Shown here: in pieces, positions 9,020 through 46,883 of the stretch | Position numbering within the stretch: the first letter of the stretch is position 1 | Layout: the number at the start of each line of letters is the position of its first letter | Origin: an uncultured Candidatus Saccharibacteria bacterium | Lineage (GTDB): Bacteria > Patescibacteriota > Minisyncoccia > Phycocordibacterales > UBA12088 | DNA length: 64,000 nucleotides | Direction: 5' to 3' | Assembly: GCA_964562615.1 (NCBI GenBank) | Contig: CAZLUD010000002.1 | Span: 17,907-81,906, forward strand | Notes under the pieces: model-generated | Databases searched by the model: none | What the model saw: the letters and a program-made list of their open reading frames with translations, nothing else | Told to the model about the DNA's origin: nothing | Program-made: the position numbers and the translations under genes

Positions 9020-9091
9020 GGCCCTATCGTCTAACGGTTAGGACGGAGCCTTCTCAAGGCTTAAATCGGGGTTCGATTCCCCGTAGGGTCA
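9020..9091 (+). tRNA. tRNA-Glu (anticodon CUC), no encoded CCA
   Basis: Manual cloverleaf: acceptor GGCCCTA/TAGGGTC, D-arm GTCT/GGAC, anticodon stem GAGCC/GGCTT with loop TTCTCAA, T-arm CGGGG-TTCGATT-CCCCG. Confidence 0.8.
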
Positions 9092-9093
9092 CA

Positions 9094-37751: not shown

Positions 37752-38213
37752 TTATAGGGTTATCTCATGCTCGTGCAGGTCTTTTTTATTTGCTTGTGGT
37801 GGAGGTGTGCGGCGCATAAAATAATCTGCGCTTATTCGTCCTGGCCCGTGACCTAAGAGGTAACAAAGCCCTCCGAGTATGGCAATGTTTTTTAACAAAG
37901 AGGTATCGCTAAATGAATTATGAATAAGCAATATGGTAAGGATGGTAAATAGCGCAAGTAATGATGCGCTTATATGGGTTAAAAGCCCTATCACAACAAG
38001 TGAGCCAAAGACAATCTCAATTCCTATTACGGCATAGGTGATAAGCTCAGGGTAGGGCAATGAAAGGGAAGCGACAGTGCTTACCACGCCTTCAATCATG
38101 TATAGCTTTGCGATACCTGAAAACAAAAATAGTGAGCCGATACTTACCCTTCCGATAAGGATGTATATCGTCTCGCATATACCACAGTGATAACGTGAAA
38201 ATGTACTTTGCAT
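37752..38213 (-). CDS. DoxX-family membrane protein
   Basis: 4-TM DoxX-like core (SIGSLFLFSGIAKL). Confidence 0.75.
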   Translation of the reverse strand: MQSTFSRYHCGICETIYILIGRVSIGSLFLFSGIAKLYMIEGVVSTVASLSLPYPELITYAVIGIEIVFGSLVVIGLLTHISASLLALFTILTILLIHNSFSDTSLLKNIAILGGLCYLLGHGPGRISADYFMRRTPPPQANKKDLHEHEITL

Positions 38214-38242
38214 ATATAAAGTATAGCCTATGTTGAAACGCT

Positions 38243-38269
38243 TGACACCTTATGTAGGGGGAGTAAAAT
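38243..38269 (+). promoter_or_regulatory. Sigma70-like promoter of the ncRNA candidate
   Basis: TTGACA -35, 15-nt spacer, TAAAAT -10. Confidence 0.55.
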
Positions 38270-38275
38270 AATTGT

Positions 38276-38442
38276 GTCGATAGGTTCGCGACTCTATCGA
38301 CTTCGACATCGTAGATGGCGTTCCCTCCCCAGGGGCGGTGCGGGTGGAGAGCATTTTCTCTCCATATTGTGAACCGGGCTTGTGGCCCGCACCGCCCTCA
38401 CGGGCCGAGCATAGTCTTCCTTCACTGGAAGACTATTTTTGT
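38276..38442 (+). ncRNA. Structured small RNA candidate (about 165 nt) of unknown class
   Basis: Consensus promoter, 8-bp 5' hairpin, 12-bp long-range helix GGGCGGTGCGGG/CCCGCACCGCCC enclosing two hairpins, and an intrinsic terminator GTCTTCC...GGAAGAC-TATTTTT. Confidence 0.5.
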
Positions 38443-38502
38443 ATAGAGACAAAATAGGAAAAGTGATGTATAGTTTATTCAGCAGCAGAAAGGAGAGAGA
38501 GT

Positions 38503-38598
38503 ATGCAAACACTCGCCGAGAGAGTCATGCTTCGCGGTTTGTTACTTGTACCTCTTGTAATTCTTTTCACCCTTCTTCTAAAAGAAACTCTAATTTAG
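38503..38598 (+). CDS. 31-aa hydrophobic peptide ORF (MQTLAERVMLRGLLLVPLVILFTLLLKETLI) with a strong RBS; absent from the ORF track
   Basis: AAAGGAGAGAG RBS 5 nt upstream of the ATG. Followed by a terminator at 38627-38670 (ACCGCA...TGCGGT then T8). Confidence 0.45.
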   Translation: MQTLAERVMLRGLLLVPLVILFTLLLKETLI

Positions 38599-38626
38599 AG
38601 GAATATTCTCTCCTCTATTTACCTTT

Positions 38627-38670
38627 ACCGCAAGTATGATCTGTGTGATCGTATGTGCGGTATTTTTTTT
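38627..38670 (+). terminator. Rho-independent terminator
   Basis: ACCGCA...TGCGGT stem with a structured loop, then TTTTTTTT. Confidence 0.6.
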
Positions 38671-38747
38671 GTCCAATTTTTGCCCGTTGAGTAGATATCT
38701 CTTTGTGTGATATAACCTTGGAGGTCACACACATAAGGAGTTTTGGT

Positions 38748-39059
38748 ATGACTCAGCGCCTCGTTCAGATATACTTACTTCCTAAAGCGATAGAGATAGA
38801 AGAGTACAACAAAAAAGTTCGTCGGATTTGTGTGCTTTCTGCTTTTTTTGCAATAGTACTAGTAATTGTTGTTGCGTTTGTCTCAGAGCTTATAAAAGCA
38901 GTATTCGGCATACCATTTCAAGGCACCTTCGCAGAAGATGCTTTTCTTGTACTCGTAAGCGGCGTAATTGGACTTGCGCTTATAGGCTATATCACTCACC
39001 GGGGCAATCATGTCATGAACCTACGTAGGGTTAATGGCAGGTATGAACCAGACACATAG
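38748..39059 (+). CDS. Hypothetical small membrane protein. The AAGGAG RBS favours ATG 38748 over the track start at 38703
   Basis: AAGGAG 8 nt upstream. Two predicted TM helices. Confidence 0.5.
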   Translation: MTQRLVQIYLLPKAIEIEEYNKKVRRICVLSAFFAIVLVIVVAFVSELIKAVFGIPFQGTFAEDAFLVLVSGVIGLALIGYITHRGNHVMNLRRVNGRYEPDT

Positions 39060-39067
39060 TATGTATT

Positions 39068-39101
39068 GCCCGCACTATCATGAAAAATAGTGCGGGCTTT
39101 T
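39068..39101 (+). terminator. Rho-independent terminator
   Basis: GCCCGCACTAT-loop-ATAGTGCGGGC followed by TTTT. Confidence 0.8.
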
Positions 39102-39602
39102 ACTACTCTGAAAACAATTTTTACTTGGACGCATTATTAAGGTAACGCAAGTAAGGTGCGGTTATGGTAAATAGTATATTTTTATTATTCAAATTTTTTA
39201 ATTGATTTATTTGTGCCAGCAAGGAGAGAGGTCGGAGGACGGGAAGAGGGAGCGAATTTGAGTGTAAAATAATATATTTTTTTATTTGTACGAGTATTCA
39301 TACCAATCAATACTGCGCATTTATTACTAGAGGGAAGCTATTTAATGGCTTATTTGAAAATGCATGAGTGTCGCACAATATATCTTTTGCGTCATTAAAA
39401 TCAGGCAATTTGCGACGTATACTCTGTGGTCTGTATCAACTAACTATATTGTATTGATGCACTTCTATCTTCTGAGATTGGCGCGTGTTGTTAATCGATA
39501 CAAATATATATTGAACACAAAAGCGTGACTGTGTCCCCTCTGTGCCTCTACGGTAGTACTCACCATCATTGGTTATGTGTACTGCCTTATCTAAAGGATT
39601 TC

Positions 39603-41006
39603 TTATAGCAAGAAATCAAGTGGGTTGAGGTATGCGTTGTGTGCTGCTACAGGGATAATTGCACCGCCTTTTGAGCATGCAGTTGTAGGAGCAACACCAC
39701 TCTTTTTGTACCATTCGCCAAGATTCATGACTTGTACACCTTTTGTAGCAAATACACTGTAGTGCAAGTGAGGACCAGTTGAGTATCCAGTGTTGCCTGA
39801 GTAGCCGACAATACTACCACTATCAACTGCATGTCCCGGACTTACGCTAATAACTGAAAGGTGCGCATAGAGTGTAGAAAGACCATTTTGGTGTTCAACC
39901 AATACCCACTTGCCATAGCTGTAACAACCGCGAATTGAATCAGTATTGCCGGTTGCTGTAACTCTACCTGAGAGTGATGATCTAATCTTTGTCCCAAGAG
40001 GCGCCCTAAAATCGATGCCGTTATGACCCTTTCCACTGTAGGCACCGCTCTTTGCAAATGAGGTGTTGCCAAAGAGTTGTGTAATACAAAATGTGTTTTT
40101 AAGCAGTTTTTCAAATGACAGACAACCACTCATGTAGTCAGGAGAAAATGGCCAGCTAAGGGCTCCCGTACCTGAGGCTGGAATTGAGCTTGGGTCGAGG
40201 ATAAACTTGAGCTCACTTTCAAGTGCGACAATTTCTGCTTCAAGCTTGTCATACGCATCTTTTTTCTCTTTAAGGAGTGCCTGATATTTAGACTCTTGAT
40301 TTTGAGTTACTGAGAGGATGCTGGTTTTTTCTTTTCGTGCGACATCGAGCACTGATTTTTCATCTGATAGTTGACGCCTAAGCCCGGTAAGCTCTTGTGC
40401 TTTTTCTTCCTCCTCTTTGCGCACATCTTTGAGGCTTTGCGTAAGGGTCATGAGTTCACGTACATGTTCACGCACGGCACTCTCAAATTGTTGAATAGAA
40501 TCTTCTTGTTCCCAAAACTCAATAAGATTGTCGTGTTTAAGTAGTGACTCAAGCAGTGACTCATCTGAAAGGCGGTCAATTTTTCTGATTGATTCAGATA
40601 CGGCATTTCTGTCCATGATTATTTGCCCCATCTTGTTATCAATTTGCTCTGAGAGGGACTGTATCTCTGATTGGGTCTTGCCGATATTATTTTCGGTGTA
40701 GCGAATTTCCGTGCTGATTTTATTGCGTGAAATGTCAAGTGTTTTTACAGAATTTTGCAATGTCTGCTTTGCCTTACCAACCTCTACGAGCTGTACTTCG
40801 TATTGTCTAATCTCCGCTTCAAGCTCTTTTAATTTGGCGCTCGTGTTCTCGATTTTTGACTTTATCTCTTCTGCCTCCTTAGGAAGGGTAGATTCAGCAG
40901 TCGCGCTTTCATTGTTTGCGCTCTCTTGTGCATACACATACGAGCCATATGATGAGAGCATCATTGCCGCTATGAGTAAAATGACTAGGGAACGGGGATT
41001 CCTCAT
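39603..41006 (-). CDS. M23-family peptidoglycan endopeptidase with an N-terminal coiled coil (EnvC-like)
   Basis: Signal peptide, long coiled coil, M23 motifs HNGIDF and HLHYSV. Confidence 0.85.
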   Translation of the reverse strand: MRNPRSLVILLIAAMMLSSYGSYVYAQESANNESATAESTLPKEAEEIKSKIENTSAKLKELEAEIRQYEVQLVEVGKAKQTLQNSVKTLDISRNKISTEIRYTENNIGKTQSEIQSLSEQIDNKMGQIIMDRNAVSESIRKIDRLSDESLLESLLKHDNLIEFWEQEDSIQQFESAVREHVRELMTLTQSLKDVRKEEEEKAQELTGLRRQLSDEKSVLDVARKEKTSILSVTQNQESKYQALLKEKKDAYDKLEAEIVALESELKFILDPSSIPASGTGALSWPFSPDYMSGCLSFEKLLKNTFCITQLFGNTSFAKSGAYSGKGHNGIDFRAPLGTKIRSSLSGRVTATGNTDSIRGCYSYGKWVLVEHQNGLSTLYAHLSVISVSPGHAVDSGSIVGYSGNTGYSTGPHLHYSVFATKGVQVMNLGEWYKKSGVAPTTACSKGGAIIPVAAHNAYLNPLDFLL

Positions 41007-44577: not shown

Positions 44578-45642
44578 TTAGCCGGTAAGGGCGATAATTA
44601 CACCAATAAATGCAAAAAGAACAGAAAGTACCCAGTAGCGCATGGTGACCTTGTAACTTGGCCATCCAATCGCTTCAAAGTGATGATGAATTGGTGCTAC
44701 TCTGAACAATTTTTTGCCCCGAAATCGTTTTGAGCATACTTGCAGTATGTTTGAGAGTACGGTAATAACAAGCAAAAAACCTATCACAAGGAGAAGCGAT
44801 ATCCCTTCTCCACCGCCAAGCGCATCAGTCATAAACGCAAGAACGGCAATGGTCATGGTGATTCCCATGGTGCCTGTTTCTGTCATCCAAAATCTAGCTG
44901 GTGGGATGTTAAACCACAAAAAGGCAAGCGTTGCACCAAGCATGGCGCCAGAGAAGGCGGCGAGGTTTAACTGTGATTGTGAAAACGCAATAAGCGCATA
45001 GGCGGCAAATATAGATGCAAATACTCCACCAGAGAGCCCGTCGATGCCATCTATTACTCCACTAGCGTACAGCGCCACCATAACAAGCACAAAAAGCGGA
45101 ATGATATATGCACCCAAGGTTATGTCAGAAAGGTATGGTAGCCCTACACTAACCACATCAAGTTTTGCATAAAACCACCACGCTACACCGGCACCGACTA
45201 CCGTCACCACAGCAAGACGATGAAAAATTGAAAGCCCCCGCTCTCCCTCTGGAGCTATATCCCGTATGTCATTAAGCAATCCCACGAGACTTCCAAGAAG
45301 TAGTGTCATAAGCGGTATCCACGTTTGATCGCGAGAAAGATAATCCAACTTATCAAATAGCGGCACATCAGTTATAAGTGCAAGCAAGTAGTAGAGTGCG
45401 GTAGTGATACACACACTGAGCCAAATAATAATGCCACCCATACGTGGTGTCTTTGTCTCGGTGTGTTCTCGAAGTTTTGAAAATTCTTCCGCGGTACTTC
45501 CGTCCAGTGCTACTTTATGTGGTTGCTTTTTCCAGGCTTTATATTTGTATAGATAGTGCGTAATGATAGGTGTGATACCAATACCAACAGCAAACGCAGT
45601 TGCGACAGGTATGAGGACTTTTACTATAGAAAAGGTAATCAT
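44578..45642 (-). CDS. mraY: Phospho-N-acetylmuramoyl-pentapeptide transferase MraY
   Basis: PIHHHFE motif and 10 TM helices. Confidence 0.9.
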   Translation of the reverse strand: MITFSIVKVLIPVATAFAVGIGITPIITHYLYKYKAWKKQPHKVALDGSTAEEFSKLREHTETKTPRMGGIIIWLSVCITTALYYLLALITDVPLFDKLDYLSRDQTWIPLMTLLLGSLVGLLNDIRDIAPEGERGLSIFHRLAVVTVVGAGVAWWFYAKLDVVSVGLPYLSDITLGAYIIPLFVLVMVALYASGVIDGIDGLSGGVFASIFAAYALIAFSQSQLNLAAFSGAMLGATLAFLWFNIPPARFWMTETGTMGITMTIAVLAFMTDALGGGEGISLLLVIGFLLVITVLSNILQVCSKRFRGKKLFRVAPIHHHFEAIGWPSYKVTMRYWVLSVLFAFIGVIIALTG

Positions 45643-45702
45643 TCATTAGATTGTAGCATGGGTAGCTACTTTATTTGAACGCATACAAAATAGATGTGTG
45701 GG

Positions 45703-45731
45703 TTGACACATTACATGCATTGTAGTATTAT
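45703..45731 (+). promoter_or_regulatory. Consensus sigma70 promoter of ncRNA candidate 2
   Basis: TTGACA, 17-nt spacer, TATTAT. Confidence 0.6.
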
Positions 45732-45737
45732 ATACAC

Positions 45738-45904
45738 ATATCGTTCTTTCCATTTTTGGAGCACAGTTGACCATCGGTCGCTTCGGACCCGATCGATGGT
45801 CTTATGGGTGGCGAATCCTTGATACACAAGCTAATCCACGGTAGCTTGCAGTCGGGTTCGCCACCCACTATACCCGCCGCCTTTTATAAAGGCGGCCTTT
45901 TGTT
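45738..45904 (+). ncRNA. Structured small RNA candidate (about 165 nt) of unknown class
   Basis: 12-bp hairpin capped by a cUUCGg tetraloop; 10-bp long-range helix GGGTGGCGAA/TTCGCCACCC enclosing a 7-bp hairpin; intrinsic terminator GCCGCCTTT-TAT-AAAGGCGGC followed by CTTTTGTT. Confidence 0.5.
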
Positions 45905-46883
45905 AGTTGCGAGAGTTAATTACTTCTCGAGCAATTTCTGAGAGATATATAGCGTCACTAAACCGCTCGTCCTTGGTTGAACCTAGTACTACCACCACCG
46001 CTGGATGGCCAATACCAGCATCAAATGCAATGACTAAATTGCCTCCAGCAAGATCAGTATAGCCAGTTTTAGATGCGATAAGTCCTGGTATCATCCCGAC
46101 AAGAGTATTTGTATTTTCAGCAATATGAGAAGCATTGAGCGAATCTGTCGATACTACTAGGTCTTTGGTCTTTGCAAGTAGCTCTGGTTTGGTGCGCAGT
46201 AGATACGCAGTAAGCATGCTCATATCTCTCGCAGAGCCATATGCACCACTGTGCGTGAGGCTAATATCAAGCCCAGTAGGATTTAAAAAGTATGTTTGCT
46301 GTAGTCCTAATGATTTGGCATACATATTCATGCTTTCAACAAAACCACCAAGGTTATGAGTGCCATCCGGTAGTATATCGTCCGCAGCAAGCGCAACTGC
46401 CGCAGCGCCATCATTTGATGAGGTGATAAGGGTGTAATCAAGGAGATCAGGCAAGTACCACGATTCGCCATAGGTAAAACCAGACTCCCCCTCTTCATTA
46501 AGCGCTTCTTCAGTGATGGTAATTGGTGAGGCGTCTGAGAGTGATTCACTTGCCACAAGAGCGGTCATGAGCTTTGCCACAGAGGCAAGTGGAAGCTGCG
46601 CATCTGCATTTCTCTCGTAGAGAATTTCATTTTGGAGGACGTCATATACCACAAACGAACGAGCCACTACCCTACTTTCATCTATAGCAACTGTTGGTAT
46701 TGCGCGCGTTGGTGATGAGATAGTGTAAGAGCTCTCTGTGGTGTCTTCTAGTAAAAAGTATCTAGCACCAAGCACACTCATCATCGTGATGAATAAAAGT
46801 ACCATTGCTGGCACTGGCAGTGATGCAAGTGGTTTATACGTCATGGTCATTGTCTTGTGATTCTTCATTAAGAAATGAGGCAA
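45903..46883 (-). CDS. D-alanyl-D-alanine carboxypeptidase (S11, PBP5-like)
   Basis: SVAK (SxxK), SSND (SxN) and KTGYT (KTG) motifs. The start is likely an internal ATG. Confidence 0.85.
   Translation of the reverse strand: MPHFLMKNHKTMTMTYKPLASLPVPAMVLLFITMMSVLGARYFLLEDTTESSYTISSPTRAIPTVAIDESRVVARSFVVYDVLQNEILYERNADAQLPLASVAKLMTALVASESLSDASPITITEEALNEEGESGFTYGESWYLPDLLDYTLITSSNDGAAAVALAADDILPDGTHNLGGFVESMNMYAKSLGLQQTYFLNPTGLDISLTHSGAYGSARDMSMLTAYLLRTKPELLAKTKDLVVSTDSLNASHIAENTNTLVGMIPGLIASKTGYTDLAGGNLVIAFDAGIGHPAVVVVLGSTKDERFSDAIYLSEIAREVINSRN

Follow-up and report, generated by a model that had tools for sequence, protein, structure and literature searches.

Stand-alone small RNAs of bacteria, among them RsaE/RoxS, the C-rich-loop riboregulators of Firmicutes, are encoded as intergenic units of about 100-200 nt under a sigma-70 promoter, fold into stem-loops with short invariant loops, end at a Rho-independent terminator and are lineage-specific. 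The locus that we describe here resembles them in each of these respects. It also shares features with two other kinds of element. Like chromosomal cis-antisense RNAs and convergent insulators, it is oriented convergently to a neighbouring gene, dac, ends at the dac stop codon and would be fully complementary to any transcript that reads through dac. Like T-box leaders and tRNA-like minihelices, it contains GGGUGG, which is the core of the T-box motif, and an acceptor-like 7-bp helix with ACCA directly behind it in three of five sequences.

The small RNAs of the Candidate Phyla Radiation (CPR) are essentially uncharted, and the present locus is a well-delimited candidate with comparative support. 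For TM7x, a member of the group, a 2022 transcriptome preprint speaks of 'no currently validated small RNAs' (doi 10.1101/2022.03.25.485537).

The locus and its transcription signals

Positions 45703-45904 of the 64-kb stretch of DNA analysed here (the window) hold a promoter, three hairpins and an intrinsic terminator, all on the plus strand. The neighbours, mraY (Glycos_transf_4, 44578-45642) and a D-Ala-D-Ala carboxypeptidase gene of the Peptidase_S11 type (dac, 45903-46883), both lie on the minus strand, within a row of genes that reads scpA-scpB-dac-mraY-ftsW-murG. The original prediction of a separate promoter-to-terminator unit, opposite in strand to both neighbours, is borne out, with a length of about 167 nt. 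The promoter, of the sigma-70 type (45703-45731, plus strand), is the TTGACA-17-TATTAT sequence that had been proposed, with the -35 element at 45703-45708, a 17-nt spacer and the -10 element at 45726-45731. It matches the consensus at 11 of 12 positions and is the top site of a 2.5-kb scan; only seven sites of the form TTGAC[AT]-N16-18-TAnnnT occur in the whole 64 kb, this one among them. In the four lineages that carry the RNA the -35 TTGACA is identical in 4/4 despite a differing spacer sequence, and the -10 element appears as TATTAT, TACTAT, CACTAT or TATGTT. Transcription is predicted to start about 7 nt past the -10 element, at about position 45738.

The terminator, too, lies where it was expected (45876-45904, plus strand). 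A 9-bp stem closed by a 3-nt loop, GCCGCCTTT-TAT-AAAGGCGGC at 45876-45896, is followed by CTTTTGTT, the U-tract being CUUUUGUU (45897-45904); six of the nine base pairs are G-C. In L001 (AUCGCCUC/GAGGCGAU), L004 and L016 the sequence of the stem has changed and its pairing is kept. By its last 2 nt the terminator reaches into the stop codon of dac (45903-45905, minus strand). Across the four lineages both promoter and terminator hold their positions amid diverging sequence.

On the other side of the unit lies the promoter of mraY, divergent from that of the RNA (45650-45679, minus strand; TTCAAA-18-TGcTACAAT). Only 7 nt separate its end from the ATG at 45642, and this closeness suggests that the mraY mRNA is probably leaderless; we find no Shine-Dalgarno sequence upstream of the ATG. 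The arrangement TGnTAnAAT-7 nt-ATG is kept in L001, L016 and L004 as well as in L006, an outgroup that has no such RNA.

Distribution among related genomes

Protein searches with dac and MraY yielded four lineages that carry the RNA: the window species, L016 (MraY 94% identical), L001 (MraY 95% identical) and L004/L005 (MraY 87% identical). Two alleles of the RNA occur side by side in public samples of the window species, one in the window and L009, the other in L007, L008, L010, L025 and L026. The organism is present in runs SRR13076504/05, SRR21681254/367/524/527, SRR21875704 and SRR35185575, in JGI 3300043411 and in GCA_020049755.1, and relatives of it in SRR30482345/36 and SRR29748427/38. 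The dac-mraY spacer of the RNA-bearing loci measures 259-268 nt, and the RNA unit keeps its orientation and in every case has the stop codon of dac on one side and the promoter of mraY on the other. Outgroups with the same gene order, namely L006 (MraY 75%), L018 and L019-L021 (67-69%), have a dac-mraY spacer of 53-55 nt that holds only the mraY promoter; in the more distant L002 (dac 43% identical) there is no spacer able to hold the RNA. Because the short spacer of the syntenic outgroups leaves no room for the RNA, comparison of the loci indicates that the whole unit of promoter, RNA and terminator is an insertion of about 210 bp confined to a narrow clade of Patescibacteria. The taxonomic labels conflict: the closest public contig, L001, is labelled uncultured Candidatus Saccharibacteria, and beyond the clade the nearest named homologues of MraY and dac bear the labels Kaiserbacteria, Paceibacterota or Parcubacteria.

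Further copies were sought in several ways. A protein search with the N-terminus of MraY returned no in-clade fragments. A covariance model, R1, built from five sequences, found no second copy in the window, nor elsewhere in about 180 kb of related loci, and a repeated or mobile element of the MITE or REP kind was rejected on the strength of this single copy. The pattern GGTGGNGAANCCNTGA-N20-50-GGNTTCNCCACC, searched in JGI metagenome contigs, matched just unrelated GC-rich palindromes and coding sequence; a looser pattern searched in viral contigs likewise gave unrelated palindromes or coding sequence and no copy of the RNA. In several short Logan/JGI contigs (L010, L024 and L027-L030) the assembly breaks in or beside the RNA gene, 1-197 nt upstream of mraY. 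Strain-level indels are the probable cause of these breaks, and a repeat elsewhere in the genome might also account for them.

Fold and selection

The predicted transcript (45738-45904, plus strand) has a minimum free energy of -74.3 kcal/mol, against -44.1 +/- 3.9 kcal/mol in 200 dinucleotide shuffles (z = -7.7), none of which is as stable as the real sequence. In its 5' leader (45738-45768, plus strand) lie hairpin 1, which is weak (45748-45761, UUCCA-UUUU-UGGAG), and AUUUUUG, a U-run that is conserved. Two pairs of hairpin 1 have changed on both sides; in L004 the hairpin is missing and the U-run alone is retained.

Hairpin 2 (45769-45801, plus strand) had been described as a 12-bp stem capped by a cUUCGg tetraloop. 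The 12-bp stem stands, with one G·U pair, but the tetraloop does not: the predicted loop is the 9-nt CUUCGGACC (45781-45789), and cUUCGg would require a lone C-G pair and a 3-nt bulge. Nor is cUUCGg conserved, its C being deleted in the L007 allele and L001 carrying UCGUCGGACCUGC. Three pairs of the stem have changed on both sides, its G·U has become G-C in L016, and L001 has a compensated 1-bp insertion. Within the loop UCGGACC is invariant across lineages, L004 included though the stem of L004 differs in sequence. Given that the loop stays identical in L004 while the stem is rewritten, the hairpin shows the pattern expected of a contact surface.

Hairpin 3 (45805-45867, plus strand) is long and bipartite. 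The closing helix of the original prediction is present and longer than the 10 bp proposed: it consists of 14 bp and, past a UU bulge, a further 3 bp, with the 5' strand at 45805-45823 and the 3' strand at 45851-45867. Above it come an internal loop and a 7-bp hairpin (45827-45848, plus strand) closed by the apical loop AUCCACGG (45834-45841); here too an inner hairpin of 7 bp had been foreseen, and its sequence reads CAAGCTA/TAGCTTG, not GCAAGCT/AGCTTGC. The base of hairpin 3, GGUGGYGAAYCC/GGGUUCRCCACC, is nearly invariant across lineages, and the changes that it does carry preserve pairing (C-G to U-A in L004; U·G to C-G in L001, L007 and L004). The inner stem has turned from AAGCUA/UAGCUU into UGCUG/CAGCA in L001, and the upper half is rebuilt in L004, that is, not conserved there. 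A single-stranded linker of 8 nt, CUAUACCC (45868-45875, plus strand), leads to the terminator and varies in sequence among lineages.

Two segments of the RNA resemble each other. The hairpin-2 loop CGGACCC (45783-45790) is similar to CGAAUCC in the 5' strand of hairpin 3 (45810-45817), and it could pair with GGGUUCG in the 3' strand (45854-45860), over 7 bp in the window and in L001 and over 6 bp in L004. Such pairing may be an intramolecular alternative or may reflect a shared recognition motif; the 17-bp helix of hairpin 3 is thermodynamically favoured over it.

How strongly is this structure maintained? Identity of the RNA to the window is 0.93 in L016, 0.72 in L001 and 0.53 in L004. At the four-fold degenerate sites of mraY/dac the corresponding values are 0.50/0.50, 0.51/0.44 and 0.38/0.32, near saturation between lineages. 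Since the RNA is more alike than the four-fold sites of the genes that flank it, we conclude from the alignments that it is under purifying selection. In accordance with this, nine pairs have changed on both sides, compared with 2.3 +/- 1.2 in shuffles (0/500 reach nine) and with 0-3 in controls with slid partners, and a model-guided alignment has standard pairs in 90.9% of pair cells; with only four lineages these covariation statistics are weak to modest, yet all lines of evidence agree. The two alleles of the window species differ at five sites: deletion of a C at 45781 (loop), U·G to C-G at 45816, 45824 in the internal loop, deletion of a G at 45840 (apical loop) and 45869 in the linker. 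None of the five differences breaks a pair; the flanks diverge by 1.7% and the MraY proteins are identical. Synteny and covariation, which the original prediction had named among its own checks, speak for it, with promoter and terminator conserved, compensatory changes in the stems and strong purifying selection.

The RNA has also been compared with known families and with possible coding functions. At gathering thresholds Rfam 15 has a single match in the whole window, tRNA-Glu at 9020-9091. With E up to 10, the region of the RNA gives three matches, at 14-21 bits against gathering scores of 41-90, and the homologous loci of L001, L004 and L016 give no consistent match within the RNA. The original prediction assigned the RNA to no known class, and this holds for the window and the three homologous loci, where Rfam returns nothing at gathering thresholds and merely chance matches at E of about 1-5. 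The tRNA gene just mentioned, tRNA-Glu(CUC) (9020-9092, plus strand), is the only one in the 64 kb, and its 3' CCA is not encoded.

Several classes were tried and rejected. A tRNA, tmRNA or tRNA-like RNA was dismissed given that ARAGORN finds only the tRNA-Glu in the window and that no Rfam tRNA or tmRNA model matches the region. A T-box is opposed by the lack of an Rfam match, by a GGGUGG that lies in a perfect helix, by the absence of a specifier stem and of an antiterminator, and by a downstream gene that is antisense. 6S RNA also has no Rfam match, and the five sequences fold as local hairpins with unpaired ends instead of the rod and central bubble of that RNA. Readings as SRP RNA, a K-turn or an integron attC site were set aside from the sequence, where the defining features are missing. 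Comparison of open reading frames in six frames across the four lineages reveals no common ORF, and the ORFs present in the other lineages are all missing from L004; because no ORF is common to the four lineages, a small protein or the toxin of a type I toxin-antitoxin pair is excluded. What is found, in sum, is an intergenic unit that has a promoter and a Rho-independent terminator to itself and no ORF conserved across the four lineages.

Possible modes of action and relation to known RNAs

The reading that we favour, and hold tentatively, is that of a stand-alone regulatory sRNA, specific to the clade, that works in trans on a partner encoded elsewhere. A module of about 210 bp, consisting of promoter, RNA and terminator, would have been acquired in the ancestor of the clade, entering the gap that separates the end of dac from the promoter of mraY. 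Transcription would begin about 7 nt past TATTAT and finish at the intrinsic terminator, which adjoins the stop codon of dac. The resulting RNA of about 167 nt, presumably made constitutively, would fold with hairpin 2, hairpin 3 in its long bipartite form and the terminator hairpin, and this fold is kept by selection. We infer that the free RNA then acts on a partner elsewhere. Contact would probably be made by the base of hairpin 3 and through UCGGACC(C) in the exposed loop of hairpin 2, and the partner could be either an mRNA engaged through the loop, the RNA being a base-pairing riboregulator, or a protein engaged through the helix. Contact with a partner fits the pattern of conservation, since the scaffold is maintained, the short exposed loop is invariant and so is the helix; the elements conserved across all lineages are the -35 element, the U-run of the leader, UCGGACC and the base of hairpin 3.

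The window itself, a fraction of one genome, was searched for targets of the invariant loop and of accessible segments of the RNA, with no convincing result. The 64 kb contain no further exact complement of the hairpin-2 loop; near matches to that complement, with up to two mismatches, number 15 where 29 are expected by chance. With translation-initiation regions in the window, the best duplexes reach z of about -3.5, and they are formed by segments of the RNA that are not conserved or concern doubtful ORFs. A sequence-invariant helix of 14-17 bp, atypical of a riboregulator of the seed type, counts against this reading, as does the very narrow distribution, the scans of JGI metagenome and viral contigs having shown no copy.

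A question remains, could the unit act simply through its position? As a cis-antisense RNA or transcriptional insulator it would uncouple transcription of scpAB-dac from the leaderless mraY promoter. The convergent unit would collide with transcripts reading through dac and pair with them, forming a perfect duplex of about 165 bp, a substrate of RNase III, and the mraY promoter would be shielded from occlusion; in the ancestor, a gap of 53 nt separated dac from mraY, and the two genes probably shared a transcript. On the minus strand no U-tract terminator was found downstream of dac, so read-through is plausible, and any such transcript would collide and pair with the RNA because the end of the convergent unit falls on the stop codon of dac. 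The overlap of the terminator with that codon, the conserved promoter that mraY has of its own 7 nt from the ATG, the near-consensus promoter of the RNA and an outgroup gap of 53-55 nt that contains the mraY promoter alone all suit this explanation. However, complementarity in cis is automatic, and it leaves the compensatory changes, the identity of 93% against 50% at synonymous sites and the invariant loop unexplained. A purely antisense role needs no conservation of the fold, the only antisense target is the inserted spacer itself, and the outgroups cope without such a unit. Collision and pairing are probably real as a by-product; as the main function they are the chief rival of the trans-acting sRNA, one that we consider unlikely, if worth keeping in mind.

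The near-invariant base of hairpin 3 invites another explanation, which we judge very doubtful: a protein-binding or processed structural RNA with a minihelix resembling a tRNA acceptor. RNase P would cut before G45806 and trimming from the 3' end would remove the terminator, leaving a CCA-ended hairpin of about 65 nt as a substrate or decoy of tRNA enzymes. No other part of the RNA is as conserved in sequence as this base. A 7-bp helix, GGGUGGC/GCCACCC, is followed by ACCA in three of the five sequences, A-CCA coming directly after the hairpin-3 helix in L007, L016 and L001. A U precedes G+1 in 4/5 sequences (a C in L004), and the tRNA-Glu gene indicates that CCA need not be gene-encoded here. 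Against this stand the ACUA of the window and the ACCC of L004, the absence of a T-loop-like cap, and the silence of ARAGORN and of the Rfam tRNA and tmRNA models; in a C/A-rich context, besides, a chance CCA is likely. That RNase P and trimming of the 3' end do set hairpin 3 free, and that it then serves enzymes handling tRNA as a CCA-ended substrate or decoy, seems to us slightly more doubtful again. If true, CPR bacteria would possess a tRNA-like small RNA of a new class, and its place in a cell-wall cluster could mean, for example, aminoacyl-tRNA-dependent peptidoglycan chemistry.

Could the functional strand be the other one? The minus strand folds almost equally well (-73.0 kcal/mol, z = -7.0), and both neighbours are encoded on it, so that the element might be a structured intercistronic or 5'-UTR part of a dac-mraY mRNA, with the plus-strand signals fortuitous. 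Yet the pair cells include 17 G·U on the plus strand, which become A·C mismatches on the minus strand, against five of the reverse kind, and the transitions from U·G to C-G and from G·U to G-C suit the plus strand. On the minus strand the terminator hairpin is followed by GGGUAUAG and makes no terminator; on the plus strand a terminator with a covarying stem and a U-tract is present in all four lineages, as is the invariant TTGACA, and the mraY promoter sits at the mraY ATG. Given the excess of G·U over A·C cells, the shifts from wobble to Watson-Crick pairs, the invariant -35 element and the conserved plus-strand terminator, the comparison identifies the plus strand as the functional one and makes a minus-strand element very improbable.

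An attenuator resembling a riboswitch, in which the 5' part would sense a ligand or tRNA and gate antisense transcription into dac, has in its favour the order of promoter, structured RNA and terminator with an antisense gene right behind it, as well as two pairings read from the sequence (the CGGACCC loop with GGGUUCG of hairpin 3, and GGUGGCG with CGCCGCC of the terminator). It is nonetheless scarcely credible. The terminator stem has a predicted pairing probability of 0.96-1.0, no upstream partner competes for it, and its 5' strand is unpaired in every prefix fold of the five sequences; with a terminator that is predicted to form and a 5' strand that stays free, a riboswitch-like decision is unsupported. 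The local 17-bp helix of hairpin 3 would be the first to form, searches at E up to 10 bring up no riboswitch or T-box model, and the RNA lacks a multi-helix junction bearing conserved unpaired nucleotides.

Finally, RNAs of CPR bacteria are often divergent, and a strong promoter, a length of about 165 nt and high conservation might suggest a known housekeeping RNA (6S, SRP or Y-like) missed by the Rfam models, a notion that we find just as hard to credit given that four homologues give no Rfam signal, the 5' and 3' ends are unpaired with no 6S-type rod and central bubble, a GNRA-capped SRP domain IV is absent, and the RNA is missing from the syntenic locus of close outgroups and looks recently inserted.

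If the RNA is expressed, the locus is a clean example of an sRNA gene inserted de novo into a conserved operon, and it offers a concrete entry to RNA-based regulation in ultra-small symbionts. The gene appears to have been gained recently, inside a cluster for cell division and cell wall, by a genome that is otherwise shedding DNA. On the other hand, its narrow distribution limits its general importance.

A second promoter-to-terminator unit of about 167 nt lies in the same window (38242-38442, plus strand), in a gene-poor stretch of 1.4 kb (38213-39603). Besides a TTGACA-16-TAAAAT promoter (38242-38269) it has one hairpin at the 5' end, a second, GC-rich one that is long and bipartite, and a terminator (38411-38436) with TTTTTG after it; the minimum free energy is -76.4 kcal/mol (z = -5.0), and Rfam gives no match at E up to 1. 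The two units are similar in size and architecture and not detectably homologous, R1 having no match there.

How, then, does the RNA relate to the systems it resembles? Unlike T-box leaders, it has its GGGUGG fully paired, lacks a Stem I and specifier loop and is followed by no sense gene; unlike tRNA-like minihelices, it has no T-loop and ARAGORN is blank at the locus. From cis-antisense RNAs it differs in that it overlaps just the inserted spacer, with no coding region or ribosome-binding site, and in that its own fold is under selection. From stand-alone sRNAs such as RsaE/RoxS it is set apart by the absence of sequence or covariance-model similarity to any Rfam sRNA, by a conserved loop, UCGGACC, that is not an anti-Shine-Dalgarno C-run, by its long sequence-invariant helix of 14-17 bp and by its CPR host. 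The candidate is best regarded as a new sRNA family of a familiar kind, in which stem-loops stand between a sigma-70 promoter and an intrinsic terminator in an intergenic region.
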